A program made the translations under genes and the position numbers. Shown here piece by piece: positions 31,833-46,779 of a DNA stretch of 64,000 nt. Source of the DNA: Candidatus Bathyarchaeota archaeon (lineage in GTDB: Archaea; Thermoproteota; Bathyarchaeia; Bathyarchaeales; Bathycorpusculaceae); contig CAWABA010000006.1 in assembly GCA_963780185.1 (NCBI GenBank), forward strand, positions 288,001 to 352,000, written 5' to 3'. Under the pieces are notes generated by a model, which was not told the origin of the DNA, did not search any database, and was given only the letters and a program-made list of their open reading frames with translations. Numbering within the stretch: the first letter of the stretch is position 1; every line of letters starts with the position of its first letter.

Positions 31833-32618
31833 ATGCGTCAGGTTGACATGGTAAGGCTTGACTTATCTGCGGGAAAAGCGGAGAAGACAAAGGATTTCGT
31901 TGCAGAAGAGGTTCCCCTGCAGATAACGCTAAACGGCGCCTACACGTTTGTGATTTGGTGCAGCCCCAGCCAATTCAAGGAGCTCGCCGTCGGCTACCTG
32001 CTTGCTGAAGACATTTTGCGGGGCGTCGACGAAATCGAGTCCCTAAGCAGCAGCGAAAAAGAAAACCGTTGCCAAATTACTCTAAAGACGACCGTGGATT
32101 TAGATGAGCGCATGAAGCATTCGCGCCGCAGCACCCGCATTATCCCGCTGATTAAAGCCAGCACATCGCCCTACCAGCATGACGAACGAATTCCCGTCGT
32201 GAAGTCGCCGCTGAAAGTGAAGGCACAGGTCATCCTTGACTGCATAGCCCAAATGAACCTCAAAGCCAAGGGCTTCAAAGAAACCGGCGGGCTCCATGAC
32301 TCGGGCATTTTCAAGACAGACGGCACAATGGTGGCTTTCTCCGAGGATGTCGGCAGGCACAACACGGTTGACAAAGTCATCGGCGAAGCGTCCCTGAAAA
32401 AAGAGGATTTCAGTCAGTGCTTCATGATTATTACGGGGCGGGTTCCTGGCGACATGATTTACAAGGCGGCGAAAGTCGGCTTGCCCATCGTGGCGTCGGT
32501 TGCGGCTGTTCTTAACTCGGGAATTTCCTCAGCTGAGAAAGCCAACATCGCGCTGGTGGGCTTTGTTCGCGGAACACGCATGAACGTTTACACGGGTGCA
32601 GAAAGGATAGTTCTGTAG
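31833..32618 (+). CDS. fdhD: FdhD family molybdenum cofactor carrier/sulfurtransferase
   Basis: VAEEVPL, TGGLH, EDVGRHNTVDKVIG, TGRVP, GFVRG. Confidence 0.92.
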   Translation: MRQVDMVRLDLSAGKAEKTKDFVAEEVPLQITLNGAYTFVIWCSPSQFKELAVGYLLAEDILRGVDEIESLSSSEKENRCQITLKTTVDLDERMKHSRRSTRIIPLIKASTSPYQHDERIPVVKSPLKVKAQVILDCIAQMNLKAKGFKETGGLHDSGIFKTDGTMVAFSEDVGRHNTVDKVIGEASLKKEDFSQCFMIITGRVPGDMIYKAAKVGLPIVASVAAVLNSGISSAEKANIALVGFVRGTRMNVYTGAERIVL

Positions 32619-32626
32619 GTGCCCAA

Positions 32627-33898
32627 ATGATTAGACCCGACATTAAGAGACTGCCTAAACGCGGAGACCCGCTGGACGCGCAAAAACAGCTCCTAAAAGC
32701 CGCCTGCAAAGCCAAACTGCATACGGAAGCTGTCCCACTGATGGAAGCCTTAGGCAGAGTCTTGTCGAAAGACGCATTCTCAGACATTAACATTCCAGCT
32801 TACGACAAAACCTTCATAGACGGCTACGCAATCAACCCGCAAAAAACCACAGAAGCCTCCGTTGGCGCACCGGCGGCTTTCAAAGTTGTCGGTAAACTGT
32901 TCCCAGCTGACTACCCGACCGCCGTGAAGGTGGGGCGTGGAGAAGCCGTTTACGTTGCCTGTGGAGCCCCAATCCCAAAAGGTGCGGCTGCAACGGTCAA
33001 AGTGGAGGAAACAAGGCTAAACGGCGACCAAATCCAAGTTCTTCGCCCAATCAAGTCTGGCGAAGGCATCATACCTCTAGGCGACGACCTCAAGAAAGGC
33101 ACTTTAATTCTGCGAAAAGGGCAGGTTCTGAGACCGCAAGACATAGGCTTGCTTGCCTCGGTCGGCATGGCTAAGGTTGAAGTTTTCAAGAAGCCAACAG
33201 TAGCCATTCTCTCTGGAGGAGACGAATTAATCAGGCAAACCCAGAAAAACCCCGAAAAAATCGCCAACAACTACGCGCTCGTAGTCTCGGGTTTGGCTTC
33301 TGAACTTGGCGCGTCAGCTTCCATGCTGGGAATTATGCCTGACTCCATGGATAAGGTGCAAGCCAAAATCGGTGAAGCCTTGACGCAGGCGGACATCGTC
33401 GTCACCATCGGCGGCTCTTCGGTCGGGGTGAAGGATTTTGTTCCAGACGCGGTAAATGCGCTTGGAAAACCCGGCGTTGTTGTGCAGGGCGTCTTGCTGC
33501 GTCCTGGCGCGGTTTCAGGCTTCGGCATCGTAGACGGCAAACCCGTCGTCATGTTGCCTGGGCACATCGGCTCATGCATCGCAGGCTTCTACCTCTTCGC
33601 AGCACCCCTAATCAGCATGTACGCGGGCGCAGAGTCAGCTGGGATGCAGCCGCACGTAACTGCCGAGTTAACTGAAGCGTTGGATTCGGGTCCGCAGTTC
33701 AGGTTCCTGCTTCTTCATCTGACACGCGGCGAAGGCAAGTTCTTGGCGGCGCCAGTTGAAGGCGGTTCAAGCGCGCTGTCAACCATCGTAAAATCAAACG
33801 GCTACACAATCGTTCCGCCGCACACGACGTTGCCGAAAGGCAGCAAAGTTGAAGTGCACTTGTTTGGGAAGCTGGAGTTTTCTGCGCTCGGCTTTTAG
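32627..33898 (+). CDS. moeA: Molybdopterin molybdotransferase
   Basis: DGYA, SGGDEL, TIGGSSVGVKDF, RPG, MLPG. Confidence 0.92.
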   Translation: MIRPDIKRLPKRGDPLDAQKQLLKAACKAKLHTEAVPLMEALGRVLSKDAFSDINIPAYDKTFIDGYAINPQKTTEASVGAPAAFKVVGKLFPADYPTAVKVGRGEAVYVACGAPIPKGAAATVKVEETRLNGDQIQVLRPIKSGEGIIPLGDDLKKGTLILRKGQVLRPQDIGLLASVGMAKVEVFKKPTVAILSGGDELIRQTQKNPEKIANNYALVVSGLASELGASASMLGIMPDSMDKVQAKIGEALTQADIVVTIGGSSVGVKDFVPDAVNALGKPGVVVQGVLLRPGAVSGFGIVDGKPVVMLPGHIGSCIAGFYLFAAPLISMYAGAESAGMQPHVTAELTEALDSGPQFRFLLLHLTRGEGKFLAAPVEGGSSALSTIVKSNGYTIVPPHTTLPKGSKVEVHLFGKLEFSALGF

Positions 33899-34982
33899 GC
33901 TACTTTTGACGGGTAACGGTGGACATGGCTGTGCTTTCCCATAGCCCACGACTCGCACCACGCCTTGTCAGCTAACGCACGCTGAGCCAGCAGCATGCAA
34001 CGGTTCTCCTCAAACAATTCAGCCTCTAACCGATAATCGTCTGCAGCTTTGACAAAAGCGTCTTTGCCGTCAAAATCCACCTCAGCAGCCGCTTGGGGTC
34101 AGATTTTTGTTTGGAAAGTTTCAGCAAAGCTTCTCCTTGGCTTTCCCAACTCACAGCCGCCCAAAAACATGAGCGCGAGGCTTCAAAACTGCTGGCGCAC
34201 GAGGCAAAGGTGCCTGCTGCTTGGGAAAGTTTGTCTTCCTGAGCCATTCTGGCGCCGTCTCGCAAATGCTGCAAATCAGACATTGGAAAACTGCCTAGGT
34301 TCAGTTGCACGTTTTCTTTGACTGGGCCGTGGGCGCGGCGGGTTTGTAGTTGTTTGAGGTCTTCTTTGGAGTTGATGTTGATGAAGCTTCTGAGTTCGGG
34401 GTCAAGCGCCTTGATTTCGTTCACGGTGGAGACGAGCAGGGTTTTGCTGGCGCCTCTTTGGATGTCGTCTGAGCGTGGACGCTTAAGCATGCACAGCGTC
34501 TCGGTGATTTCTAACCCGGCTTTGCGCTCCAGCACTGTGAGCAGGGTTTCAAGGCGTCCGTTGGGCCACATTGGAGTAGCCACCTCAAAACCCTCGGCTT
34601 GCCTAAACAGGTAATCTGCGACTTTAGGCTGCAGAAAAGGCATGTCACAGGGCAAAGTGAGACAATAATCTGCCCCAACCTGCTTGAGCCCCGACATAAT
34701 TGCCACAGTGGGACCGCTGATATCGGCTTTTTCGTCAACCACAACCCGCACGGCTTCAAACCCATGCGCCTTGAGGACTCCAACGTAATTTGCCCCGCGT
34801 TGCCCATCACAAACACTTACCGCAACCTCGTCAACAACCCCCTGCACGTTTTCAACAGCATGAACCAGCAGAGGCTTACCAGAAAGGTTAGCGAGCGCCT
34901 TGTCTTCCCACACGTCTCCGCCTTTAACTTGGAAACGCCGGGCTTTTCCACCCGCCAATATGAGCGCAGCCCGTTTAGTCAA
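33895..34982 (-). CDS. mobA: Molybdenum cofactor guanylyltransferase with C-terminal helical extension (3' frameshift)
   Basis: LILAGGKARRF, DKAL, LPCDMPF, FININS. Confidence 0.88.
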
Positions 34983-34994
34983 GCAGTTTTCTCC

Positions 34995-35570
34995 TTAGTC
35001 CGCGGCTTTTGCGGTGGGTTTTGTTTTGGCGAGGTGGTTTTTGATTAGGTCAACGAGTTTTTGTCCGTCTTCCGGAATTTTGATTATGGGTATGCTGCGG
35101 AACGTTGTGCTGGTTGAGTTTTTGGCTGCGACGCCTGCAATCGCGATGATTGGCTCCACGGTGCCTTCTAGCGTCTGCATGAGTCCTTCTTCGTCTTTGG
35201 CAGTGACGATTTTGGGGACGTCTGCTCTTTTGGCGATTAAGCTGTGGAAGCCTTCGATGAAAACCACATCCAGCTTCTCATGTTCAAGCAACGCGATTAT
35301 TTTGTCGAGGTCGTTGAGCGCCATCTGGGTTTTTTTTATGATGTCTATTTCTTCAGGCGAAATGGCGACGATGACTTTGGCTCCTGCCTTGGCGTAGCGC
35401 CACGTGTTCGTGCCCTCCTTATCCATAGTGAAGCCCATGTGATGAACATGCTTAATCGACCCAACCTGATAGCCCTCCGCTGACAGACGAGAAATCAGGT
35501 ACTCTAACGTAACTGTCTTTCCTGAACCGCTTACCCCAACCGCGGCAACAACTAAAACCGTACAACATCA
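34995..35570 (-). CDS. mobB: Molybdopterin-guanine dinucleotide biosynthesis protein B (start approximate)
   Basis: Upstream frame VGVSGSGKT...IKH; DKEGTNTWRYAKAGA, VFIEGF. Confidence 0.88.
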
Positions 35571-35662
35571 CGCTCCATTTGAAAAAGCTGCCTGCTTGGT
35601 TTTATAAATTGTGCTTGACTTCGCAGTTTTAGGCGCAAACGAAAAAGTACTTCCTCTGAAGT

Positions 35663-36606
35663 TTAGCATACGTATATCTCTGCTACAAACTTAACCCAGT
35701 ATTGCCCCCACTTGTATTCAGGTGTCGGCGCAAAGATTCTGAAAGGTCCGCCTTGACTTGTCGGTAGGTGTTGTCCGTTTTCTTGGTAGCCAAGTAGCAT
35801 TGCTCCGTCTCTAACTTGGGCTAACGTGAAGTTTTGTTCGTAGCCGTCGATGCCGATGAAGCAGACTTTGCTGGCTTGGCTGGAAGCTTTTGCTGCTTGA
35901 AGAATATTTAAGATCGGTATACCCGTCCAGTCTGCGGTCACGTTGGGTGCATCTCCAGGTCTGAATTCTCCGTTCAGCGTTTGTGATTGAAAAGCAGTGA
36001 TGTTTTTCCCAGTAATTACAAGCGGATTCGCTACGTCGCCCGTGACTCGAGACAGTCCACTGGTTACTTTGGATTTTTGCGACTTGCTCAACTTGGAAAT
36101 TGCCTGCAAAGTGTGGCGCGATAAGTTTTACTGGGCCCCCATTTTGACTGGTTATCCATTGACCGTTTTTTATGAATGCAAGCACAATCACATTATAACT
36201 GTAGCTGTAAGGGAAGTAGGTGCTGTTCCATGCTTGAAAAGTGCTTAGGGTTGCCGATTGCCCTTTTGCGCCGATTATGTTTAAGGGTCCAGCATCCCAC
36301 GAAATTCCTGTCTGGTTACAGAACTCGGAGAGCGAAACTCCGCAGTAAGTGGCGTTTTCGCTTTTCACGATTACGTCTGTTAGCGGCATTTTTGATATTT
36401 GGTTTAGCGTCAAAGTTTTTTCTTGGCTGACGTCGCCTGTGACTTCAATTTGCCATTGGGGAATGGCACCCACTGGCAGCGTCAACTCGTTTTTGTTTGA
36501 CTGCGAATTGTTTCCTATTATTTTGCCGTAGTAGAGTGAGGTGAAGGCTGCCTAGGACAATTATTGTGGCTATGGTTATGGTGAGAATTTTTGTTGTTTT
36601 CTTCAT
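35663..36606 (-). CDS. Membrane-anchored protein with two sulfite-oxidase-type molybdopterin-binding domains (frameshifted)
   Basis: MKKTTK plus TM helix; WQIEVTGDV...GGPVKL and WTGIPI...DGY...GYQENG...GGPFRI...WVK. Confidence 0.8.
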
Positions 36607-36650
36607 TTTTTCGCTTCTTGTTTGTTGCTTAGTTCTTTTTTCTTGGCTAA

Positions 36651-36674
36651 CGATATGATTTAATAGTAACATCG
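36651..36674. promoter_or_regulatory. ModE-like operator palindrome 1
   Basis: CGATATGA-TTTAATAG-TAACATCG between divergent genes. Confidence 0.8.
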
Positions 36675-36731
36675 GATTGTTAGTTAATTTCAAACTAAAA
36701 AGCCTACCGCTCCAGCTTGGAAGAAGACAAT

Positions 36732-37777
36732 ATGAAAAATCATGCATTAACCTGTATTTCAGTCTTAGTATTAACCACTTTTTTAGCCGCTTCATTCGCC
36801 GCACCATCAGCCCAACCTGCTTTGCCAACGCAGACGCAAATTCAAGTTTTTCAATAGTCTGGATAACCGACACCCAGTACCTTTCAGAAAGCTACCCCGC
36901 ATACTTTGACAATTTATGCCAATGGATCGTTAACAACAAAGAAACCTACAACGTGCAAATGGTGATTCACACAGGCGACATCGTCAACGACGAAGCAAAC
37001 CAAACAGAATGGGCAAACGCGAACGAGTCAATGAGCATACTCCTAAACAACAATGTTCCCTACTGCTGGGACGCTGGAAACCACGATTACGACGTAACAT
37101 GCTGGATAGGCAACCAGTTTACAGCTTTTAACCCACAAGTAATGCAGTCGAAAACGTACTGGGTCGGCGACGACTTCGACGGCATGAACACAGCAGTTCA
37201 CTTTAACGTTAACGGTTGGGATTGCTTAGTAGTAAACATCGCATACCACGCTAACGATTCAGTGCTGGCTTGGGCGAACAACCTCTTGGACGCCTACCCG
37301 CAATCTCATGTCATCGTGGCAACTCATGCATTCATTAATCAACAGTGCAGTTACGATTCTTGGGCGCTAAACTTCAAAAAAACGGTTCTCGATACCCACC
37401 CCAACGTCTTCTTGACCCTAAACGGCCATTATCATCCTGCCGCGGGAAACCGGACAGAAGTCAACGGTCGCTACGAGTTGCTTTTTAACCAGCAGGATGC
37501 CGACGTCGAAAGGGGTGCTGACACCGCGAGAATTCTAACTTTTAACATCGGAACAGGCACAATAAATGTACAAACTTACAACCAACTCACAAACCAGTTT
37601 CTACAAGACCCAACCAACAACTTCACGTTAACGACCAGCTTTCGCGGCAACTCTGAAGGCGGAGGTGTCCCAGAATTTCCAGCTAATACTTTTCTGGTAA
37701 TTCTTTTGTCAGCTTCTGCCCTTTGCCTGGTTGCTGTAGGTGGGAAGCCGAAATTGAAAATCTTGTCAGAGTCATAG
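36732..37777 (+). CDS. Secreted metallophosphoesterase with PEF-CTERM-like sorting signal
   Basis: ITDTQ, HTGDIV, GNHD, VATH, TLNGHYH; C-terminal VPEFP, TM helix, basic residues; frameshift in signal peptide. Confidence 0.88.
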
Positions 37778-37860
37778 GCTAGACACCGTTAAAGTTTTTG
37801 GCGATTTGTTTGGCTTTCTTGTTTTTTGGTTTTTGAAATGGATGACTGTCAAACTAACCC

Positions 37861-37884
37861 CGATATGATTATATAGTCATATCG
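37861..37884. promoter_or_regulatory. ModE-like operator palindrome 2
   Basis: CGATATGA-TTATATAG-TCATATCG with perfect arms, 29 bp before ATG 37913. Confidence 0.85.
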
Positions 37885-37912
37885 ATAAAATTCGTGCCTG
37901 AAGGAAAATTAA

Positions 37913-39487
37913 ATGACATCTCAACTCAAAAATAGCAAATTTAACAAAAATATCTTAGCAGCCATAATAATTATAATAATCGTCGTCGCATCGGCATCAG
38001 CAGCGGCAGTATACGTTATATCACAAAAGTCGCCAGCCTCTAAAATTACGCTTCCGTCTATGTCTCTTACAGTTAAAGGCGCTGACGATCAACAAAAAGT
38101 CTTAACCCAAACAGACATTGCAGCCATGCAGCCTTATACAGGTAAAGGCGGATTCGAAACCAGCGGCGGATTGATCTCCGAAACAGGCACCTACACTGGC
38201 GTGCAAATAACAGCCTTTTTGAACCTCGTCGGTGGAATGACAAGTTCTCAAACGTTGAACGTGACGGCTTCAGACGGCTACTCAATTCTTTTCACATACA
38301 ATCAAGTCAACGGACAAGACCTCACCACATTCAGCCCAGTAACAGGAAACGCAGCAAATCCAACGCAATCCTTGGCAATGGTCTTAGCCTATTCGGTAAA
38401 CGGAACACTATTCCCCTCGGATCAAGGGCCACTGCGACTTGTTGTCTTGGGTTCCGAAGGTCTTCTAATTCCAGGCCATTACTCAGTAAAAATGGTAACT
38501 GGATTGCAAGTCAAGGGAACCGCTTCACCGACACCCACCCCCACAAGTTCCCCAACAGCTTCTCCTACACCAACAGCATCGCCTACCCCAACAGCCACCC
38601 CCACAGCTACTCCAACCCCAGCTCCATGGAGCATCGTATTTAACGGCACGGCAGCAGTAGCAATGTCTGAAGCAACATTTGCAACTCAAGTTACCCAGAA
38701 CACCACAACTTACAATGACGGCGTAACCAACTGGAGTGGAACGCCTCTGCAGCAGCTTGTAGTGTGGGCTGAAAACAACGGAGTCATAAGCAGCAGCGCC
38801 TTGGCTCAAGGTTACGTTGTTGAAGTTATAGGTTCAGACGGATACACTAAAGCCTTCAATGAAAGCCGCATAGGCGCAAACAACCTCCTAATCGCAAACA
38901 CCGCCAATGGCTCAGCACTCACAGGCAGCAACGCTCCGTTGACGCTCGCAGGCGCAAGCTTAGCCAATAACGAGAAAGTCGGGAAAATTGCCCAAATCCT
39001 AATCCTGCCTATTCAAGATTGCAGTGTAACTGTTGTTGGCGCCAACGGCAATCAGGTGACGTTGTTCTCAAATGACATTGCGTTGATGCCTTCGGTTACT
39101 TACACGGGCGGCTCTTACAAGAGCAGCTCAGGAGTATTCAACAACGGCAGCTATACAGGCGTGACGCTTCAGTCACTTTGCAACTTGGTCGGCGGAGTCA
39201 CGAGCAGTAACAGCATTAAAATCACGGGTTCTGACGGCTACAATGTTACATACACTTATGCTGAAGTTGCAAGCGGAACTGGCTTCTCTACGTTTGATGG
39301 CTCAGGAAACTCGGCGACTCCAACACAGCCACTATACCTCATATTAGCTTACTGGCTCAACGGCGCAAACTTGCCCGATGGAGTAAACGGCAGCGGACCA
39401 TTGAAGACCATGGTAGTCGGCGCAAACGCATTAAACACACCAGGCAACATCGCAGCAAAATACGTTGTCCTACTAACCATAAGCTAA
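37913..39487 (+). CDS. Membrane-anchored surface protein with three molybdopterin-binding-like domains and a Pro/Thr linker
   Basis: N-terminal TM; three repeats of (Y/W)(T/S)G...SDGY...NG...(G/A)PL. Confidence 0.82.
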   Translation: MTSQLKNSKFNKNILAAIIIIIIVVASASAAAVYVISQKSPASKITLPSMSLTVKGADDQQKVLTQTDIAAMQPYTGKGGFETSGGLISETGTYTGVQITAFLNLVGGMTSSQTLNVTASDGYSILFTYNQVNGQDLTTFSPVTGNAANPTQSLAMVLAYSVNGTLFPSDQGPLRLVVLGSEGLLIPGHYSVKMVTGLQVKGTASPTPTPTSSPTASPTPTASPTPTATPTATPTPAPWSIVFNGTAAVAMSEATFATQVTQNTTTYNDGVTNWSGTPLQQLVVWAENNGVISSSALAQGYVVEVIGSDGYTKAFNESRIGANNLLIANTANGSALTGSNAPLTLAGASLANNEKVGKIAQILILPIQDCSVTVVGANGNQVTLFSNDIALMPSVTYTGGSYKSSSGVFNNGSYTGVTLQSLCNLVGGVTSSNSIKITGSDGYNVTYTYAEVASGTGFSTFDGSGNSATPTQPLYLILAYWLNGANLPDGVNGSGPLKTMVVGANALNTPGNIAAKYVVLLTIS

Positions 39488-39626
39488 GACAAAACCGTTA
39501 ATTCAGCTTTTAATCGCTGAAACCACCTTTTTTCTTTATTAAAAAACGACTTAAGCAATTCTACAATTGAGTTTGGCAGAAATCGGGTTCAATGGGTTAA
39601 GTTAAGAAAACGGGGATTAACACTTT

Positions 39627-40130
39627 CTAGCTGACTTTTATTACGGCGACGCCTTTGACCCATCTCTGCGCGTACTGGTCGGTGCCTAAGATGAGTCTGA
39701 GTGGTCCTTCTCCGCCGTTTTTGAGCGGCGTCAAAGGTGAGCCGTTTCTGGCGTAGGCGATAAGGGTGGTTTGGTTCATTGCGTCCTGCATTGAGAGGGT
39801 TTCTCCGTAGCCATCTGACGCTTGAATGAAGACTGAAGTGGCGTTAGACGATGCTTTGGCTTGTTTTAGTAGCGTTGAAAGCAGGACTCCTGTGTAGTTG
39901 TAGGCGCCGTTTTGCGAGGGGTCGCCGCTTGAGATGAGCGTGGCTCGAATAGTTAGTGCCGTTTCTGATTTTATTTGGCTCAGGGTAACGTTCATGGGTT
40001 TTTTTACGTTTCCCGTGATTTCTATCGTTCCGAACTGGGTCGCAGGCGGACGCGTGTAGTAGTACAGCGGTATGGATGCGGCGACTAAGATAATCATGGC
40101 TGCAATGGCAATTTTCGTTGCTTTTTTCAT
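39627..40130 (-). CDS. Membrane-anchored single molybdopterin-binding domain protein
   Basis: IEITGNV, YTGVLLSTLL, ASDGY, AYARNG, GPLRL, WVKGV; no Cys. Confidence 0.85.
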   Translation of the reverse strand: MKKATKIAIAAMIILVAASIPLYYYTRPPATQFGTIEITGNVKKPMNVTLSQIKSETALTIRATLISSGDPSQNGAYNYTGVLLSTLLKQAKASSNATSVFIQASDGYGETLSMQDAMNQTTLIAYARNGSPLTPLKNGGEGPLRLILGTDQYAQRWVKGVAVIKVS

Positions 40131-40738
40131 GTTTTCACCCTGTTAAGATGGTTGTTGCTTTGGTTCAAAGTTGAATTTCCTCCAAAACCGATTTTTCTGA
40201 CTCTGACAAGAAGCATGTTTGCGATGAACCCGCCTACTCCGCCGCTTATCCCTGCAACCACTGCTAAAAACGAAAGTAAAATTAACGGTGAGACAAGGAT
40301 CAACGAGGCAACTAAGACGGTTCCAACGGCGTTGGCAATTGCTGAGGCGCCGATGCAGCAACCCGCGCAGCATGCTTTGTGTCTTGAGAGCAGAAAAAAC
40401 GCGTCTATGGCTAAGCCTGGTCCAAGGTAAATGACGAAAGACAGAAGCCCGAAGTTGCCGAAAGGCATCACTAAACTGATGAAGGCCTGTATAAGCGAAG
40501 TCATCGTTGCAGCCCCAGGTTTGCGCACCAAACCAAACGCCATCACTGGCCACATCATATAGAGTCCGCCTGCAACTGCGCCTGCTGGAATGAAGAATGG
40601 CTCGGTTATGGTGGCGGCGAGGGGGTGAATGATGTTTTTTGTTGCGATTCCTAAGCTTGCAAAAAGCGACATTAGAACAAGGTCAACGGTGGCGATTTTT
40701 AGGTTGGCTCCGTACATGGTTTGGTTTGTTCGTTTCAT
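40127..40738 (-). CDS. ECF transporter S-component (YkoE-like)
   Basis: About six TM helices, GGLYMMW...LVRKPGAA signature; overlaps the next gene by 4 bp. Confidence 0.8.
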   Translation of the reverse strand: MKRTNQTMYGANLKIATVDLVLMSLFASLGIATKNIIHPLAATITEPFFIPAGAVAGGLYMMWPVMAFGLVRKPGAATMTSLIQAFISLVMPFGNFGLLSFVIYLGPGLAIDAFFLLSRHKACCAGCCIGASAIANAVGTVLVASLILVSPLILLSFLAVVAGISGGVGGFIANMLLVRVRKIGFGGNSTLNQSNNHLNRVKT

Positions 40739-40748
40739 TCCCTCGCCC

Positions 40749-40772
40749 CGATGTTACCGTATTGTAACATCG
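40749..40772. promoter_or_regulatory. ModE-like operator palindrome 3
   Basis: CGATGTTA-CCGTATTG-TAACATCG with perfect arms, just upstream of the ECF gene. Confidence 0.85.
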
Positions 40773-40935: not shown

Positions 40936-42354
40936 ATGTTCCAACCCAAACAAACCCAGCTGAATTTAATGACCCACAACCTGCTCAACAAAAGAATTGC
41001 TGCGCCCAAACGTGTCAAGATTGCTAGTCTGAGCGCTATCCCTGAGGTTAATGGGAAAAGTGATTCTTCAAAGCAGAGTCATCTGCATTTTGGCAGAAAA
41101 GCCAAGTTTGCGGTGGCAATCGCTATCGCAGCTATCCTGCTTGTTTCATTTTTTGTTGGGATTTCCAGTTCAAACTCTCAGCTAGGGCGGTGGATGGGAA
41201 TTGACTATGTTCCCGCAGGCTTTCACGAGGGCAATTTAGGTTTCGTTGTTTCGGGTCAACCCGTCAATGAATCCGTTTGGCTCGGGGTAGCGGCAAACGC
41301 GTGGGCGTATTTTCAACCCGGCGTAGGCGTTGACGCAAACACTGGGCTTCCGTATGCTTCAGGCACAAATTTTAAGCCTTTTACCTCTTGGGATTTAGGG
41401 GTTTACATCCAGGCGGTGCTTGACGCTCAGAAACTTGGGCTTATAAAAGCGGGCGGCGCGTGGGGTTCAACTGCGCGGATTGCGAAGGTCATGAGTTTTC
41501 TTGAGAATCGACCCTTGAACCCGAAAACGGGTTACCCCTACTGGTATTACGATGCGACAAACGGGCAAGATTACCCTGCGATGTCGGATAAGGCAACAGG
41601 CATCGTTGACGGGGCTGACACGGGGAGGCTGTTTTTGGCTCTTAGCCATCTCAGAGACTACGACAGCAGTTTAGCGCCAAGGATAGACTACATTGTTTAT
41701 AACCAGAGTGACTACGCGGCGTTGCTGCCAAGCGTCGAGAGAGACACCGCATCAAACAACGTCTACTCCTACTACATAGACAGCGGCTACGCATGCTTTT
41801 GGCCCCAAGTCAGCTACGTTCCAGACCAAACCATGGAAAACCTTGCCCAAATGAACAAAGTCACCACATGCGGCGTCTTATTGCCAAACGCCACAATAAC
41901 CACCGAGCCATTGCTGTGCGCAATCTTCGAAATCAACAACACCAACACCGAACTAAACGCCCTGACGAAGCAAGTTTACCTTGCCCACCAAGCCTACTAC
42001 AACTCAACAGGCAAGTACGTTGCCTTCAGCGAAGGAAACTCCTTTACAAGCCAATACCTCTACGAATGGGTAGTCGCCCCCAACGGCCAGACATGGAAAA
42101 TAACCAGCACCACCCCCAACATATACCTAAACATAAACCCCATAATCTACACCAAAGTAGCCTTCAGCTTCCTCGCACTCTACAACACCACCTTCGCCCA
42201 AAACATAGTTGTCTACCTCCAAAACATGATTCCTAACCCCTCCTCAAACGGGTACAGCGACGGCGCAAACAGCAGCGGACAGTGCATTCCAGGCACAGGC
42301 TGCAACACCAACGGCTTAATTTTAGACGCCGCCCTCTACGCCATTCAGAACTAA
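40936..42354 (+). CDS. DUF3131-type secreted glycoside hydrolase-like protein (start uncertain)
   Basis: AWAYFQ...VDANTGL, TSWDLGVY, DTGRL, YVAFSEG, IYTKVAF, NTNGLIL. Confidence 0.7.
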   Translation: MFQPKQTQLNLMTHNLLNKRIAAPKRVKIASLSAIPEVNGKSDSSKQSHLHFGRKAKFAVAIAIAAILLVSFFVGISSSNSQLGRWMGIDYVPAGFHEGNLGFVVSGQPVNESVWLGVAANAWAYFQPGVGVDANTGLPYASGTNFKPFTSWDLGVYIQAVLDAQKLGLIKAGGAWGSTARIAKVMSFLENRPLNPKTGYPYWYYDATNGQDYPAMSDKATGIVDGADTGRLFLALSHLRDYDSSLAPRIDYIVYNQSDYAALLPSVERDTASNNVYSYYIDSGYACFWPQVSYVPDQTMENLAQMNKVTTCGVLLPNATITTEPLLCAIFEINNTNTELNALTKQVYLAHQAYYNSTGKYVAFSEGNSFTSQYLYEWVVAPNGQTWKITSTTPNIYLNINPIIYTKVAFSFLALYNTTFAQNIVVYLQNMIPNPSSNGYSDGANSSGQCIPGTGCNTNGLILDAALYAIQN

Positions 42355-42382: not shown

Positions 42383-42916
42383 ATGGTGCAGGTTTTGCCA
42401 AAAATGGTTGCGGTCGTCGGCGGGAAACACTCGGGGAAAACCACCGTTATCGAACACTTAATTGCAGAACTGAAAAGCCGTGGATACCGTGTTGGTGCCG
42501 TTAAGGAGATGGTTCGCATCCCAACGTTGGATACGCCTGCCACTGAAACTGACAGGTACACCACTGCGGGGGCAGAAGTCATAGTTGCTGTTCCCAGAGA
42601 CGAAACCGTCGTATTCATCAAAAAACGGCTCAGCATAAAAGAGATTTTGCCCTACCTCAATGGGCTCGACTATGCTCTTTTAGAAGGCTTCGAGCGTGAA
42701 CAAACGCTTCCCAAGATTATTGCTGCAAAAACCGCTGACGAAGTAAAAAGCTACTTGGGCGGGTTGGTCATTGCCGTTTCAGGTCTGATAATGGAGTCCG
42801 CGCCAGAAACAAAGAAAGCCGCCATGTTCAATATTCCAATGTTCAAGATTTCGATGCAGACTGGAGAACTTGCCGATTTAGTCGCCGAAAAAGCGGTAAC
42901 CTGCAGCGGCATCTGA
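42383..42916 (+). CDS. mobB: Second MobB family protein
   Basis: VVGGKHSGKTT, LDTPATETDRY...AGA, LLEGF. Confidence 0.85.
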   Translation: MVQVLPKMVAVVGGKHSGKTTVIEHLIAELKSRGYRVGAVKEMVRIPTLDTPATETDRYTTAGAEVIVAVPRDETVVFIKKRLSIKEILPYLNGLDYALLEGFEREQTLPKIIAAKTADEVKSYLGGLVIAVSGLIMESAPETKKAAMFNIPMFKISMQTGELADLVAEKAVTCSGI

Positions 42917-43168: not shown

Positions 43169-44275
43169 TTATTCGATGTTGTTGTCTTCAAAGATGTTTA
43201 ATGCGTCAGTGCTGAAACACACGTATACTTTGTCTCCTATGCTGACCCCCAAACTCTTGATTGTGCTTAAAGAAACTCTTGTTTTTACCAAGAAGCCTGC
43301 GTCTATCGTGACTTGGGCGTTTGATCTCATTTGAACCATCTCAGTTATGACTCCTTGAACAGAGTTGCTTGGAGCCCCACCGAAATTGGATTCGGCTGAT
43401 TTGGAAAGTACGATGTCTTCAGGTTTAATTGTGGCGATAACGCTTTTTCCGACGATGTTAGGAGTTTTTGGCGCCAAAATTATCTCGCCATTCACATCGA
43501 TTTCTAAGAGCCCCTCACGGGTTCCCACAGCGCTGCCTTTGAACGTGTTAATTCCCAGAAACTTTGCAACGTACGATGAACTGGGCTTATCAAAAATCTC
43601 GGTTCTGCCGCCGATTTGCTCGATGCGTCCATTGCCCATCACAGCTATCCTGTCTGACATCACAAAAGCTTCAGACAAGTTATGAGTAACATAAACCACA
43701 TCGATTTTTAGTGCCTGAAGGTAGTTTTTGAGTTCCAACCTGAAAGATTCTCTTAGTTGAGGATCAACTGCGGAGACAGGTTCATCTAAAAGCAGCACTT
43801 GCGGTTCAGTTGCCAGAGATCTTGCCAACGCAATCCTTTGTTTCTGCCCGCCGCTAAGTTGACTCGGATAAAACTTTGCATATTCGTGGAGCCCAACGAA
43901 ATCAAGTAGGCTTTCCGTTCTTTTTTTCACTTCCTGTCTGGGTAAGTGCATCGCCTTTAACCCGTATGCTACATTGTCTTGAACGCGCATATGAGGAAAA
44001 AGAGATACCGTTTGGAAGACATAGCCAACTTTACGCTCTGACGGCTTAAGCTGAACCTTTTTTGTGCCCTCTTTTCCGCTCACTAACACATCGTCAATGT
44101 AAATATTGCCTTCATCTTGCCTGGTTAAGCCTGAAAGTATGTTTAACAGCGTTGTTTTTCCACAGCCGTTCGGCCCAAGAAGTGACAAGATTTCCTCGTC
44201 TCTAACTTCGAGACTGAGGTTTTCCAAAACCTTCTTTTCTTTAAAAGATTTTGAAATTGAAGTAATCTTTATCAT
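43169..44275 (-). CDS. modC: Molybdate/tungstate ABC transporter ATPase with C-terminal TOBE domain
   Basis: [26 protein letters not shown]. Confidence 0.88.
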
Positions 44276-45094
44276 TTTTTGGCGCCCCACCTTTTTTGCT
44301 CAAGAAGCTTAACGGCTATAAGAATTGAGAATGAAATGATGATTAAAATAATGGATAACATGATTCCTGCTAAGGGCTCGTAATACAGAAACATGTAGAT
44401 TGCCAGAGGCATCGTCTGCGTTATACCTGCAATGTTTCCCGCGAACATGAGGGTTGCGCCAAACTCGCCCATGGCTCTTGCCCACGTCATCATGGTTCCT
44501 GAAATTATAGCCCGTATTGAAAGCGGGAAAGTGATGGTGAAAAATACCCTGAAGGCGAGAACCCGATAACATCTTGGCACTGTTAATTATGTCTTTATCC
44601 ATGTTTTCAAACCCAACTTTGGCAGATCTAAAAAGAAATGGAGATGCTACAAAAGTTTCTGCAATAACGACGGCTATTGTGCTTCCAGGTATAATGAATC
44701 CCGGTTTGTTGAATAGGGGACCCAGTAGTCCTTTCGGCGCGAAAGTGTATAGCAACGCCACACCCGCTACAGCAGGCGGCAAAACTATAGGTAAATCCAT
44801 TATAGTGTCAAGGAATGTTTTTCCAGGAAAATTTCTCGTTACCATGAAATAAGCTGATGGTACCGCTAAAATAAAGGCAATTACAGTCGCTGCGGCTGAT
44901 GTCATTAAGCTGAGTTTAATGGCTTCTATGATTCCAGCGTTACGTATCTGCGCGCTGACTTGGCTAGGCTCGATTTTTAAAAAAACTGCTAAAATTGGTA
45001 TGGTTATGAAAAGAAAGTATGTTACTACGATTAGGGCAACGATTAAAATGATAATTTTGTCTGGATATCGGAGTTGAGCGAACCTATGCTTCAA
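44272..45094 (-). CDS. modB: Molybdate/tungstate ABC transporter permease (frameshifted)
   Basis: [38 protein letters not shown]. Confidence 0.9.
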
Positions 45095-45151
45095 TATGTT
45101 GCACCGTTCGATAACTTAAAAAAAAGATGTGGAAGTGCTTAATATGCACTT

Positions 45152-46178
45152 TTATGACCCGAACCCGAATTCTGTCAGCAGCGCTTGTCCTTGTGCTTGA
45201 AAGCCAGTAATTGTAGAAGTCTTGTGCTACAGCTGATTGAGTTGTTTCGCTAGGTATGCAAATGCCGTAGGTGCCAACAGTGTTTACTGCGGTTAGGTAT
45301 TGGAAGGAATTGTACTGTTTCTCCTATCAGGTTGGCGTAAGCTTCGTCAGAGTAGTACACGATGCCAGCGTCAGCGACTCCTACGTTGAGGTTAACGGCG
45401 CCAACGACTTGTTCATCAGTTGATAACGTGTTAATGACGTTGTTTTGGAAATTCGTGTAGTAGTTAGCGTAAGCTGGGTTGTAGCTTGGAGAGCTTGGGT
45501 TGCCCCATGTGTTAGTTAATTTTTGTCAGGGTTTGGTTTGTGTATGAGCCTACAGGCACTGATGTCTGCGCTATTACGATATGTATCTTGTTAGCGCCTG
45601 TAGCGGTAGAAGCTAAGTCTGCCAGTGATGTAATGTTTTTCGGGTTGCCTTGCGCTATAATGACGCAGAGACTGTTTGTTGTGAAATTGGTGTTGAAGTT
45701 GCTGTATGACGAGGTTTGAGCTGTTTAACGCGTTGGTCCATTTGGTGTCGGCGGACATGAAGACGTCGCATGGTGAGCCTGCAGCGATTTGCGCTTCAAG
45801 TGTACTTGATGAGCCAGAGTTGACTACTATGTTGCAGTTATATTGCTTGTCGAATGCTGCGGTCATGTTTGCGACGACGTTGACTAAGCTTGAAGCAACG
45901 AACACTGTTAGAGTTACAGGTGTTGGGGTTGCTGTCGGAGCAGGTGTTGGAGATCGGTTGAAGGTGATGCTGTTGGGGTAGCGGTGGGTTTTGCGGTGTG
46001 GGTGAGGGCGTTGCGCGTTGCTGTTGGGGTGAGCGTGGGTGATGCGGTCGGTGCGGGTGACGGTGTGGGGGAAATTTTGGAGTTGGGTGAGAGTGTTCCG
46101 TTGTAGGCTAAATAGCCCAGTGCGGAAGCAACTATTATTATGACGTACCATTATTATTGCAAGGTATTTTGTGTTCAT
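45152..46178 (-). CDS. modA: Molybdate/tungstate ABC substrate-binding protein (heavily frameshifted)
   Basis: LTVFVASSL, SGSSSTL, CDVFMSAD, ADAGIVY; N-terminal PT linker. Confidence 0.85.
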
Positions 46179-46189
46179 GGAGATTATCT

Positions 46190-46213
46190 CGATGTTATCA
46201 TTTAGTCATATCG
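46190..46213. promoter_or_regulatory. ModE-like operator palindrome 4
   Basis: CGATGTTA-TCATTTAG-TCATATCG just upstream of the modA ATG. Confidence 0.85.
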
Positions 46214-46449: not shown

Positions 46450-46779
46450 TTACGGCATCTTTTCTAAAAGATTGTTGAGCTCAGCCTGGGTATAACGGTA
46501 CCGCTTAACTAAATCTCTGCCAAAATCCGTAACTTCCGATGAGCCGCCGCCTTTCGATCCGCCACGCACACGTTTCACAAGTGACTGCCCAAGCCGCTCC
46601 TCTGCCAAAGTGATGCGGTGCAGGGCATAGCGGTAGGACATGCCTAGGTTTTTGGTGGTTTCAAGCATCGAGTGGCATTTGTCGATTTCTTCCAAGAGTT
46701 CCGCTAAGCCGTCGCCGAAAACCGCTTCGTCATTCTCGTTAACCATCCAAAGCTTAACTGCGTATTTGAGGGCGCACAT
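46450..46779 (-). CDS. modE: ModE N-terminal winged-helix regulator (no TOBE domains)
   Basis: FGDGLAELLEEI...LGMSYR...RGGSKGGGS.VT. Confidence 0.85.
   Translation of the reverse strand: MCALKYAVKLWMVNENDEAVFGDGLAELLEEIDKCHSMLETTKNLGMSYRYALHRITLAEERLGQSLVKRVRGGSKGGGSSEVTDFGRDLVKRYRYTQAELNNLLEKMP

Follow-up and report, generated by a model that had tools for sequence, protein, structure and literature searches.

We analyzed a 64,000-nt window from Candidatus Bathyarchaeota archaeon (CAWABA010000006.1, positions 288,001 to 352,000), in which the stretch from 35,663 to 40,772 carries three sulfite oxidase (SUOX)-like surface protein genes, a metallophosphoesterase gene, and the gene for an ECF transporter S-component. 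The first SUOX-like gene (35663..36605, (−) strand) encodes an N-terminal transmembrane anchor and two PF00174-like domains, the second (37913..39487, (+) strand) a 524-aa protein with an N-terminal transmembrane anchor, a Pro/Thr-rich linker, and three domains, and the third (39627..40130, (−) strand) an anchored, single-domain protein of 167 aa that is the partner of the S-component and has 153 homologs. Pfam matches to PF00174 were found at 35663-36109(−) (E = 7.9e-17) and 35811-36485(−) (E = 1.2e-13), in the 167-aa protein (E = 6e-19), and in the first domain of the 524-aa protein (E = 1.6e-12). A profile of the 167-aa family (alignment A1, 48 sequences) recovered all six domains (3 + 2 + 1 across the three proteins) and placed those of the 524-aa protein at residues 17-196, 250-~340, and 369-522. 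Orthologs of the three-domain protein occur at loci L031, L035, L041, L068, and L071. N-terminal hydrophobic anchors are present in the SUOX-like proteins, and no RR (Tat) motif occurs in the N-termini MKKATKIAIAAM..., MTSQLKNSKFNKNILAAIIII..., and MKKTTKILTITIA..., both read directly from the sequences. The preliminary description of the locus, which had reported six sulfite-oxidase-type domains (2 + 3 + 1) in three anchored proteins without a twin-arginine motif, was thus correct on these points, but the two-domain gene that it counted is not a single ORF in this assembly.

Specifically, the anchor, domain 1, and domain 2 of the two-domain protein lie in three different frames, with single-nucleotide shifts between them near 36552 and ~36040. 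The ortholog in genome G187 is a single intact ORF, and a relative's contig lacks one base at 36553. These frameshifts are probably assembly errors, and indels of this kind are likely since a neighboring mobB and the phosphoesterase gene are also frame-broken. The latter (36677..37777, (+) strand; PF00149, E = 8.6e-9) encodes a calcineurin-like metallophosphoesterase anchored by a hydrophobic C-terminal segment and lies between SUOX-like genes, where the preliminary description had put it; its signal peptide begins at an ATG at 36732 in another frame, and the gene is therefore frameshifted, while the G187 ortholog is intact.

An adjacent cofactor-maturation block (31833..35438) comprises FdhD (31833-32618, +), MoeA (32627-33898, +), a MobA-like protein (34026-34982, −), and a frame-broken second MobB (34995-35438, −; P-loop in 35439-35662). 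On the other side lie a P-loop MobB of molybdopterin-guanine-dinucleotide synthesis (42383..42916, (+) strand; PF03205 and TIGR00176) and, on the (−) strand at 43169..46178, modC/wtpC (43169-44290), modB/wtpB (44309-45094), and a frame-broken N-terminal piece of modA (45591-46178). FwdA-like and GXGXG genes are also among the window neighbors by family profile matches, so that the adjacency of moeA, mobA, mobB, fdhD, and fwd claimed at the outset was confirmed, with two copies of mobB and with modCBA.

All six domains had been said to lack Cys where the Mo ligand should be, and the preliminary description had proposed aligning them to PF00174 and modelling them. We found that the six carry S, T, Q, S, P, or a deletion at this position. 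SorA Cys104 (NQCSG) aligned to Ser67 of the 167-aa protein, which, as first noted by eye, contains no Cys at all, and in A1 the corresponding column was Ser in 41/48 sequences and never Cys. An AF2 model of the 167-aa protein (pLDDT 92.9) has the SUOX fold: Foldseek matched it to SorA (2e-9), YedY (7.6e-9), and PruR 7KOM (2.6e-8), with SorA, YedY, and chicken sulfite oxidase at a probability of 1.00, a query TM of about 0.7 to SUOX enzymes, and a target TM of 0.73–0.77 to PruR 7KOS and 7KOM (0.77 for 7KOM). The family profile matched SorA (5e-11), PruR 7KOM (1.6e-10), and PruR 7KOS (5e-8). The SUOX-like proteins score below the cut-offs for the SorA, SoxC, and MsrP families. In comparison with SUOX molybdoenzymes (sulfite oxidase, SorA, YedY/MsrP), these proteins share the Moco-binding-domain fold and aligned GxPxRL and W-x-K motifs, but they have no Cys ligand, dimerization or heme domain, Tat signal, or partner such as MsrQ, and the Cys-bearing hairpin is shortened: by alignment only, without superposition, about 10 residues separate Ser and YTGV, against about 20 in SorA (106 to 128).

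Ser ligands occur in the DMSO-reductase family, and the domains could accordingly be read as extracellular Mo/W enzymes whose metal has a Ser ligand or none from the protein; the ECF transporter would then export cofactor to load Sec-exported apo-domains. The prevalence of Ser in A1 and the absence of a Tat signal, which would make loading outside the cell necessary, fit such a scheme. We nevertheless regard it as very improbable: other domains of the system carry T, Q, P, or a deletion at the Cys position, no heme or Fe-S redox partner is encoded in the conserved core of the loci, export would be pointless in genomes unable to make the cofactor, and ECF transporters are not known to export.

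PruR-type periplasmic pterin-binding proteins (PDB 7KOS, 7KOU, 7KOM, 7KP2, and 7RKB; PMC11194511) offer a closer parallel, although sequence similarity to PruR is remote (phmmer E = 0.011–0.94). Both are small secreted single SUOX-fold domains with no Mo-ligand Cys and a shortened Cys hairpin; counterparts of the pterin-stacking Tyr and Trp of PruR, and a polar side chain in place of its Asn, are suggested by the alignment. The pterin contacts of PruR are N102, Y104, and W160, together with a PW motif at the Cys position (PMC11194511). In A1, D106 is kept in 47/48 sequences and aligns to N102, Y108 is kept in 38/48 (with Phe in 5 more) and aligns to Y104, and W157 is kept in 40/48 and is likely the equivalent of W160, although that region lies outside the alignment shown; the PW motif position is Ser-Ser in the A1 family. 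Asn102 and the PW-motif Trp of PruR thus correspond to Asp and Ser here, and the present proteins also differ in their membrane anchor and in having some multi-domain paralogs. The earlier idea of a Cys-less SUOX-fold receptor was supported as a reading, but it is not without precedent, since PruR (PDB 7KOS) is already known. The short hairpin of PruR has been interpreted as leaving a pocket that is too short to accommodate complete Moco (PMC11194511); the hairpin here is PruR-like in its shortness, which counts against binding of whole Moco.

Among solved small SUOX-fold proteins, PruR is the closest, and the pterins held in its truncated pocket are not Moco. With a similarly short hairpin, the system here might instead take up a precursor of methanopterin or folate (6-hydroxymethylpterin, for example) or sense a pterin signal. 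Relatives of the S-component, named as HMP carriers, transport a pyrimidine, which would also be in keeping with this reading. However, Ser replaces the PW-motif Trp of PruR, and the partner here is a transporter (S-component and EcfAA'T, with MobB neighbors) rather than a DcpA-type c-di-GMP enzyme; among the neighbors in the loci, we detected neither a cyclase or phosphodiesterase of the DcpA type nor a partner kinase. Regulation and neighbors (see below) point to Moco/Tuco, not monapterin: the operator is of the ModE type, the riboswitch is Moco/Tuco rather than THF or TPP, the conserved neighbors are MobB, MobA, and MoeA, and the phyletic gap lies in moaA, moaC, and moaE. We therefore hold uptake or sensing of a non-Moco pterin to be improbable.

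The S-component gene (40127..40738, (−) strand) encodes a protein of the PF09819 family (E = 1.6e-15; score 57.7 bits, cut-off 25.2) that carries the signature SRHKACCAGCC. The gene's stop codon and the start codon of the 167-aa gene share the sequence ATGA, in agreement with the translational coupling inferred earlier. The motif RH[KR]xCCxxCC was present in 120/120 of the S-component homologs listed, but CCxxCC is absent from some bacterial S-components, including that of the apparent auxotroph at locus L099. A SUOX-like ORF lay no more than 6 kb from the S-component in 78/80 loci (Bathyarchaeia, Clostridia, Thermoleophilia, and others), and in five of the 80 (L079, L085, L087, L089, and L094) the two form a fusion ORF; P0123 and P0148 are likewise fusion proteins. 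In the class sample of 201 genomes, the same 8 genomes encode the S-component and close orthologs of the 167-aa protein. The S-component gene is adjacent in 7/8 ortholog loci. Co-occurrence of this ECF subfamily with Cys-less domains, proposed as a check in the preliminary description, thus holds in archaea as well as in bacteria, with natural fusions among the cases. An EcfA-EcfA'-EcfT module was found in 35/80 loci, with complete operons (S, SUOX, EcfA, EcfA', and EcfT) at L036, L038, and L099, while in the source genome the module is encoded in trans (C1:146504-148833).

ECF vitamin importers, of which the YkoE/PF09819 S-component family is the nearest, have in common with this system an S-component of ~200 aa, an EcfA-EcfA'-EcfT module (dedicated in relatives, in trans here), and, in bacteria, cofactor-riboswitch control following the logic of ThiT, RibU, and FolT. 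By definition, they need no extracytoplasmic binding protein, whereas the present S-component subfamily is almost always encoded with or fused to such proteins; the signature RH(K/R)xCCxxC(C) is new, there is no TPP riboswitch, and the predicted substrate is different. The nearest Pfam family is of the YkoE thiamine/HMP type, which counts against salvage of a pyranopterin cofactor. Relatives are named "ECF transporter S component" by NCBI and "thiamin/hydroxymethylpyrimidine transport system permease" by JGI, and the latter name, together with the PF09819 match, would make this a thiamine/HMP transporter whose position next to the surface proteins, unrelated to it, is incidental. We find this hardly credible. 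The S-component matched no NCBIfam equivalog, TPP riboswitches (RF00059) were not detected at the gathering score in 43 loci or the window, no thiamine genes are among the conserved neighbors in the 80 loci, the regulators are of the Mo type, and linkage in 78/80 loci and SUOX-like fusions speak against chance adjacency. A known vitamin such as thiamine as the substrate, which had been named as a possible refutation, therefore received no support from the riboswitch search.

The operator, a 24-bp palindrome with the pattern CGATRTKW-N8-WMAYATCG, occurs between the divergent two-domain and phosphoesterase genes (36651..36674), 29 nt upstream of the 524-aa gene (37861..37884), 10 nt upstream of the S-component start (40749..40772), and 12 nt upstream of modA (46190..46213), so that the SUOX-like genes and modABC have an operator in common, as first described. 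The pattern was derived from these same four sites; the 2,752,879-base genome contains four perfect copies, all in the locus, preceding the SUOX-like/S-component genes and modA, and 0/100 shuffles of the window contained any copy. The suggested search for ModE-type sites across genomes showed that the operator is kept upstream of the S-component in seven orthologous loci encoding it (L031-L034 and L036-L038), and copy 1 is at the same place in L031. A small protein resembling the ModE N-terminus (46450..46779, (−) strand; TIGR00637, E = 1e-15, below cut-off; HTH_1, 1.6e-4) is a candidate repressor for this operator. It has an HTH only, and an HTH + TOBE protein at C3:74522-75004 is likewise below the TIGR00637 cut-off. 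In 31 Bathyarchaeia loci, the gene immediately preceding the S-component encodes a comparable small HTH protein. Outside the Bathyarchaeia, 5/40 loci (Clostridia) have a Moco/Tuco riboswitch (RF01055) directly upstream of the operon on the same strand, scoring 54.5–78.6 bits (gathering score, 36). MobB is the most conserved neighbor (44/80 loci); MoeA is present in 14, MobA in 14, and FdhD in 11.

ModABC/WtpABC under ModE share the operator and the ModE-like HTH regulator with the present system, but they are type I ABC importers that use a substrate-binding protein and carry an oxyanion, as opposed to an ECF transporter for a predicted organic cofactor. Additional extracytoplasmic components are known from Ni/Co ECF systems. 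With this precedent, the transporter might import the metal itself (molybdate, tungstate, or thio-forms), with the SUOX-like proteins as extracytoplasmic accessory or capture proteins, the Cys-rich motif of the S-component as a metal site, and, by inference, the P-loop MobB as a metal chaperone. Moco riboswitches precede molybdate transporters as well as genes of Moco-using enzymes (PMC2408646), so that the RF01055 elements, like the co-regulation with modABC, are compatible with metal import; they would also suit the extracellular enzymes considered above. Metal import is unlikely, though it deserves to be kept in mind: the S-component falls in PF09819, a family with organic substrates, and not with CbiM/NikM, the receptors have a fold that binds pterins, with the pterin-contact residues apparently retained, phosphodiesterase genes in the operons would make no sense for an oxyanion, and the Cys motif is missing in some S-components. 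The distribution of cofactor biosynthesis genes bears on it from both sides.

We examined this distribution in the class sample of 201 Bathyarchaeia genomes, in 39 other carriers of the system, and in 40 further carriers; for genomes reached via loci, completeness was not established, and some may duplicate class-sample genomes. MoaC was detected in 161/201 Bathyarchaeia. In genera g1 and g20, it was not found in 5/7 carriers versus 0/10 non-carriers (Fisher about 0.003, hand-computed; kin are not independent). These five carriers are 90–99% complete, one of them a single contig, and all five encode full-length tungsten-type AOR (frames of ~633 aa, E about 1e-70), yet none had a match to MoaA-C, MoaE, ModA, or WtpA (TupA-type proteins were not covered), and only two had MoeA. 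Given the missing ModA/WtpA, the system could be their only Mo/W route, as metal import would have it; however, without MoaA, MoaC, and MoaE, and in three of them without MoeA, metal alone could not activate AOR. MoaC was also absent from 8/39 other carriers (bacterial or archaeal), among them all five with fused genes. These eight had no MoaE, one had MoeA, six had XDH-type enzymes, and seven had PF00384; seven of the eight have Moco enzymes. Among the 40 further carriers, 15 lacked MoaC, 12 of which also lacked MoaE. The preliminary description had pointed to genomes lacking moa genes, and such genomes (without moaA, moaC, and moaE) are indeed over-represented among carriers, yet possess Mo/W-pterin enzymes. 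The system is not confined to auxotrophs, since most carriers keep MoaC (25/40 and 31/39). In the class sample, 23/28 AOR-bearing genomes without MoaC do not have the system (11 of the 23 are at least 90% complete), and MoaC can also be lacking for different reasons, for example through assembly gaps or because an alternative route exists.

Taken with the observed genes, folds, missing Cys, operon and fusion linkage, shared operator, bacterial riboswitch control, and phyletic pattern, the system is probably a Mo/W-cofactor-regulated ECF-type ABC importer that salvages a pyranopterin cofactor (Moco/Tuco or metal-loaded molybdopterin) with PruR-like surface receptors; binding and transport are inferred. 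The preliminary description had proposed non-catalytic receptors handing cofactor to the ECF carrier for salvage into Fwd. This reading is supported by each of the proposed checks that the analysis covered, except that AOR-type tungstoenzymes are likely clients as much as Fwd and that salvage here is facultative, since the source genome keeps MoaA, MoaC, and MoaE. In relatives without these three proteins, the system would be the sole source of cofactor if the reading is true. Moco is labile outside proteins (PMC9026282). This counts against salvage, as do the carriers that keep MoaC, the AOR-bearing genomes with neither MoaC nor the system, and the bacterial S-components without CCxxCC.

Under cofactor salvage, scarcity of cofactor or metal would take the ModE-like repressor off the four operators, and modABC and the three SUOX-like transcription units would be induced together. 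The membrane-anchored, non-catalytic SUOX-fold domains may bind the pterin part of free cofactor in a PruR-like pocket (D106, Y108, and W157), with the multi-domain proteins serving as a putative capture net. A surface phosphoesterase could trim cofactor present as a phosphodiester or dinucleotide (MGD or MCD, for instance), presumably the calcineurin-like enzyme in the source archaeon and a nucleotide pyrophosphatase/phosphodiesterase in many Clostridia. Homologs of the former were found in only 3/80 loci plus L031 and L035, a scarcity that counts against the proposal, and homologs of the latter in 14/40 non-Bathyarchaeia loci (Clostridia); an NPP-domain (PF01663) protein is encoded inside the L099 operon. 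The single-domain protein, co-translated with or fused to the S-component, is predicted to pass the ligand to it, and import would be driven by EcfA-EcfA'-EcfT, encoded elsewhere in the source genome and within the operon in relatives. In the cell, MobB, MobA, MoeA, and FdhD might then complete the cofactor and load it into enzymes of the AOR, Fwd, Fdh, or XDH type.

The preliminary description knew of no prokaryotic Moco uptake system, and our literature search likewise found none described. C. elegans takes up dietary Moco by an unknown mechanism and transporter, with protein-bound Moco as the proposed source (PMC9026282; see also PMC7849362, PMC9793310). In both cases, finished Moco would be obtained from outside instead of being made, but the nematode is an animal with an unknown transporter, whereas here a prokaryotic transporter candidate is defined.

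The window lies within a 945-kb contig of a 2.75-Mb genome held in 13 contigs, and the best protein matches carry the names Candidatus Bathyarchaeota/Bathyarchaeia. At the center of the system, an ECF S-component (PF09819; 40127–40738, − strand) shares an ATGA stop/start overlap with the gene for a 167-aa protein consisting of a TM anchor and one PF00174 domain (39627–40130, −). Two further SUOX-like genes lie nearby: the product of one (524 aa; 37913–39487, +) has a TM anchor followed by a Pro/Thr linker and three PF00174-like domains, and that of the other (35663–36605, −) has a TM anchor and two such domains. A calcineurin-like metallophosphoesterase gene (36677–37777, +) completes the set, all of it between 35.6 and 40.8 kb. 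Upstream neighbors encode FwdA-like, GXGXG, FdhD, MoeA, MobA-like and MobB proteins, and downstream neighbors encode a DUF3131 protein, a second MobB, ModC, ModB, ModA (in broken form) and a small HTH protein resembling the N-terminal part of ModE; all genes of the Mo-cofactor neighborhood listed in the preliminary description (moeA, mobA, mobB, fdhD, fwd and modABC) were identified around the system, albeit with modA broken. We consider it probable that the system is an ECF importer for a Mo/W pyranopterin cofactor, equipped with surface receptors resembling PruR, a periplasmic Cys-less SUOX-fold pterin-binding protein; both binding and transport are inferred. In an NCBIfam scan, neither the S-component nor the SUOX-like and DUF3131 proteins matched an equivalog.

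Many genes of the locus are interrupted by single-base frame breaks, located within 34995–37000, 45095–46178 and 28609–30184. The two-domain gene is spread over three frames, and mobB (P-loop in 35439–35662) and the phosphoesterase gene (signal peptide from 36732, in another frame) are also broken, as are modA and probably fwdA. Because the ortholog of the two-domain gene in another genome (G187) is a single ORF, and a relative's contig lacks one base exactly at the first shift of this gene, the breaks are probably indels of an indel-prone assembly rather than signs of gene decay; the G187 orthologs of the other broken genes are likewise intact. The relatives' contigs are short, derive from sequencing reads matched at 85% likeness and leave the second frameshift site uncovered, and the reads come from only two DNA runs of one study, containing 4–6% of the words.

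An AlphaFold model of the 167-aa family, based on a 48-sequence alignment (A1), reached a pLDDT of 92.9, with SorA, YedY, nitrate reductase, chicken sulfite oxidase and PruR pterin-binding proteins as its best PDB matches (target-normalized TM score against PruR, 0.73–0.77), which confirms the SUOX fold by the modeling that had been suggested. The A1 profile also matched SorA (5e-11), the PruR-type protein 7KOM (1.6e-10) and PruR itself (7KOS; 5e-8). The Mo-ligand Cys of SorA aligned to Ser67, a column with Ser in 41 and Cys in none of the 48 sequences, and the hairpin that follows is ~10 residues shorter than in SorA. The preliminary description, made by eye, held that no domain has the Mo-ligand Cys and that the proteins are TM anchored without a twin-arginine motif; both statements stand, the former also for the other five domains (T, Q, S, P or a deletion at the Cys position) and the latter by direct inspection of the N-terminal anchors. 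The nearly invariant Asp106 and Tyr108 match the Asn and Tyr with which PruR holds its pterin (alignment to 7KOM; PruR contacts taken from PMC11194511), and Trp157, Arg156 and Lys159 are also conserved in A1. From the fold matches, the missing Cys and the retained pocket residues, we predict that the domains lie outside the cytoplasm, have no catalytic role and, like PruR, combine the SUOX fold with a conserved pocket, ligand binding being inferred. The prevalence of Ser at the ligand position also brings to mind extracellular Ser-ligated enzymes loaded by export, an explanation that fits less of the evidence, given the residues found in the other five domains.

SUOX-like domains also occur in other settings. 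Giant proteins that repeat the small domain many times (P0136, P0156 and P0262) have lengths of 1556, 2347 and 3077 aa and show 10, 9 and 16 matched stretches, respectively, and bacteria encode fn3- and Big-domain surface proteins with two to three SUOX-like domains, several per locus; some bacterial SUOX-like proteins start with lipoprotein-like signal sequences. The genome under study has additional paralogous domains outside the operator-controlled locus (C9:80831–81208 and C6:112055–112435), and some SUOX-like match at E ≤ 1e-5 was present in 56 of 201 genomes of the class, far more than have the S-component.

Conserved linkage in other genomes had been named as a check, and the S-component proved tightly linked to SUOX-like genes. 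Next to close orthologs of the 167-aa protein, which were found in eight loci, lie the S-component in seven and MobB in six; the most common order was S-component, two-domain protein, one-domain protein, and EcfA, EcfA′ and EcfT followed in two (in the genome under study, an EcfA-EcfA′-EcfT-type module is on another contig). In the sample of 201 class genomes, the S-component occurred in exactly the eight genomes with these orthologs. Scanning species-representative genomes with the S-component alignment detected 166 relatives, and 80 loci were retained, roughly half of them from Bathyarchaeia and the others from Clostridia (Peptococcaceae, Desulfosporosinus, Pelotomaculum, Eubacteriaceae, Anaerovoracaceae, Oscillospiraceae, Zhenpiania and Anaerosalibacter), Thermoleophilia and one Helarchaeota genome. 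A SUOX-like ORF was found within 6 kb of the S-component in 78 of the 80 loci, usually adjoining on the same strand, and was fused to it in five; in two proteins from a search of representatives (P0123 and P0148), an S-component, a TM helix and a SUOX-like domain are likewise naturally joined in one chain. The S-SUOX linkage is thus old and tight. Clustering of neighbors in the same 80 loci placed MobB in 44 (30 Bathyarchaeia-like, 14 others), EcfA/T in 35, MoeA in 14, MobA in 14 and FdhD in 11; in 31, the gene immediately before the S-component is a small HTH_1 gene. A predicted complex of the S-component and the 167-aa protein scored 0.44 (best control, 0.24), with runs agreeing in at least 81% of contacts and a partner pLDDT of at least 77. 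In calibration, 58 of 80 solved complexes passed the mark, as did 2 of 110 mismatched pairs, but only 7 of the 80 solved complexes passed at ≤0.60, a range that also includes both of these mismatched pairs; this weak support was set aside as evidence in either direction.

Other genes seen near the system include DUF364/DUF4213 genes ("putative heavy-metal chelation") in six bacterial loci (L081, L086, L088, L090, L104 and L109), in Ca. Copromorpha (L085, 4776–5927), a MobB that carries a fused SAM-methyltransferase domain and immediately precedes the fused S-SUOX gene, and, in locus L036, a MobB joined to an Fe-S domain.

The operator that the preliminary description assigned jointly to the SUOX-like genes, the S-component and modABC was also found. 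Genome-wide, four sites match the palindrome CGATRTKW-N8-WMAYATCG perfectly. One precedes modA and one the S-component operon; the other two precede the three-domain gene and the two-domain gene, the last being shared with the divergently transcribed phosphoesterase gene, all at distances of 10–46 nt. Since the four sites themselves supplied the pattern, the shuffling control is post hoc; nevertheless, all seven orthologous loci have a copy with at most two mismatches just upstream of the S-component, and such copies also precede the phosphoesterase and multi-domain genes in loci that have them. Two ModE-like proteins are encoded in the genome, one with HTH and TOBE domains and one, beside modA, with the HTH alone. 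The DUF3131 protein (40936–42354; N-terminal TM anchor) is divergent from the operator-bearing S-component promoter and was considered as a member; it shares the operator region, yet is not a conserved neighbor elsewhere and was left out.

In bacteria, the Moco/Tuco riboswitch RF01055 precedes the operon on the same strand in 5 of 40 loci (54.5–78.6 bits; gathering score, 36). Four of these five riboswitches lack the small third hairpin, which we infer to be P3 from its order in the structure; Regulski et al. (PMC2408646) link P3-less forms to the tungsten cofactor. Regulation thus points to the cofactor in both domains of life, and sensing or uptake of a non-Moco pterin, conceivable for domains that resemble a pterin binder, fits less of the evidence. 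The same is true of a thiamine/HMP transporter, the function implied by one of the automatic names: a thiamine substrate had been listed as grounds for refutation, and Rfam detected no TPP riboswitch in 43 loci or in the window, where only a tRNA was found. In three related loci, an FMN riboswitch lies ~3.5 kb downstream of the fused S-SUOX gene (L085, 10643–10771; L089, 10669–10796; L094, 10634–10762) and precedes a separate ~200-aa gene, probably an unrelated riboflavin transporter.

The main rival, import of the metal itself, would explain the regulation, and also a Cys-rich motif of the S-component, [SL]RH[KR][AG]CCxxCC, which was invariant in 120 of 120 close homologs (P0271–P0390) among the matches listed. 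It leaves unexplained the carriers unable to make molybdopterin, and the motif is absent from some bacterial members; we regard metal import as unlikely. CCxxCC is present in 36 of 41 Bathyarchaeia-like ORFs versus 15 of 41 others, with CCxxC in ~14 more of the latter and no Cys there in a subgroup that includes locus L099; it was therefore rejected as a universal metal site or defining feature. Bacterial members mostly have HRxCCxxC, and a contact to metal or dithiolene is a possible role of the motif.

Next to the importer, two unrelated surface phosphoesterases were found. In Anaerosalibacter sp. ND1 (L099), the order is riboswitch, two-domain and one-domain SUOX-like genes, S-component, PF01663 gene (495-aa TM protein; type I phosphodiesterase/nucleotide pyrophosphatase domain), another SUOX-like gene, EcfA, EcfA′, EcfT and a molybdopterin oxidoreductase. 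Of 40 non-Bathyarchaeia loci, 14 have a homolog of this phosphodiesterase; its place is taken in the window and a few relatives by the unrelated calcineurin-like enzyme, which is under the same operator. We infer that the two fit a phosphodiester-bearing organic substrate, such as dinucleotide cofactor forms, and not an oxyanion. BLASTP linked the PF01663 protein to A1-positive ORFs at 2e-18, and its N-terminal part, a possible SUOX-like domain, gave an hhalign probability of 44.6% (E, 2.3e-4). A neighbor cluster with weak "purple acid phosphatase N" matches was discarded as a conserved bacterial phosphatase, its members being fn3 surface proteins. The C-terminus of the phosphoesterase in the window (37700–37777) ends in GGGVPEFPANTFLVILLSASALCLVAVGGKPKLK, which we take to resemble an archaeosortase-type PEF-CTERM sorting signal.

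In the proposed mechanism, surface-anchored Cys-less SUOX-fold receptors would catch cofactor freed by other cells, the surface phosphodiesterase would strip the nucleotide from MGD or MCD forms, and the metal-loaded pterin would be imported via the specialized ECF S-component. We lean, with some reserve, towards regarding these receptors, phosphodiesterase and S-component as the first dedicated prokaryotic uptake pathway for the intact cofactor. ECF importers and PruR-like pterin binders are both known; the literature searched, as far as it was accessible, describes neither their obligate pairing nor the substrate predicted here or the cofactor auxotrophy that follows from it. According to a 2021 review (PMC9026282), Moco, unlike most cofactors, cannot be taken up and must be synthesized de novo, with C. 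elegans the sole organism known to acquire it. In line with the preliminary description, which knew of none, no prokaryotic uptake system for Moco, Tuco or MPT is described in the portions of the literature available to our search (including PMC3766115 and PMC11477304); supplementary gene tables of riboswitch papers could list such operons, and a T11SS preprint, available in part, merely speculates on molybdopterin uptake. A defined transporter would overturn the no-uptake view for microbes, render the old question of how a labile cofactor moves between cells and across membranes testable with few genes, and exemplify an ECF importer that uses extracytoplasmic receptor domains. The result also corrects the widespread automatic names "YedYZ catalytic subunit" and "thiamin/HMP permease", and stable Moco-binding or -carrying proteins are relevant to Moco delivery in human Moco deficiency.

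The phyletic pattern is that of a salvage transporter, as an enrichment only. Across 201 Bathyarchaeia genomes, MoaC was found in 161 and AOR in 186. Among eight sampled carriers of the S-component subfamily, MoaC is present in two (one being the genome under study, where MoaA-C and MoaE were found too), matched only in part, at the end of a contig, in one and not found in five. Within the two genera concerned, MoaC was not found in five of seven carriers and was found in 10 of 10 non-carriers (Fisher value ~0.003, computed by hand; kin are not independent, although the losses lie in two genera); the co-occurrence with a missing pathway proposed as a check does appear. These five carriers are 90–99% complete, one being a single contig, and show no match to MoaA-C, MoaE, ModA or WtpA; MoeA is present in only two, and full-length AOR frames in all five. 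MoaC is also missing in 8 of 39 carriers outside Bathyarchaeia, including all five with the fused gene; these eight have MoaE in none, MoeA in one, XDH-type enzymes in six, PF00384 proteins in seven (some of the weaker matches may be cofactor-less NuoG-like proteins) and AOR in two. Among 40 further, mostly Bathyarchaeia, carriers, MoaC is missing in 15, and MoaE too in 12 of those. Counting against salvage, the majority of carriers keep the de novo pathway, and of 28 sampled genomes with AOR and without MoaC, 23 are without the system; the association thus amounts to an enrichment and has exceptions, and genome incompleteness contributes to it.

If cofactor import is correct, Moco/Tuco auxotrophs would be anaerobes with AOR, XDH or FDH that lack moaA, moaC, moaE and often moeA, as well as ModA-/WtpA-type molybdate/tungstate binding proteins in the five Bathyarchaeia tested. 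This would account for genomes with Mo/W enzymes and no cofactor pathway, usually dismissed as incomplete, and the cofactor would join the cross-fed vitamins of anaerobic communities as a public good of anoxic sediments, digesters and guts. Two carriers without a MoaC or MoaE match have FDH-like PF00384 frames with one in-frame TGA, likely selenocysteine (G221:C8:8558–9829 and G206:C1:439258–440529). Anaerosalibacter sp. ND1, a carrier in which neither MoaC, MoaE nor MoeA was matched and which encodes XDH and Sec-FDH, appears under a strain name with no MAG tag and could be a cultured isolate.
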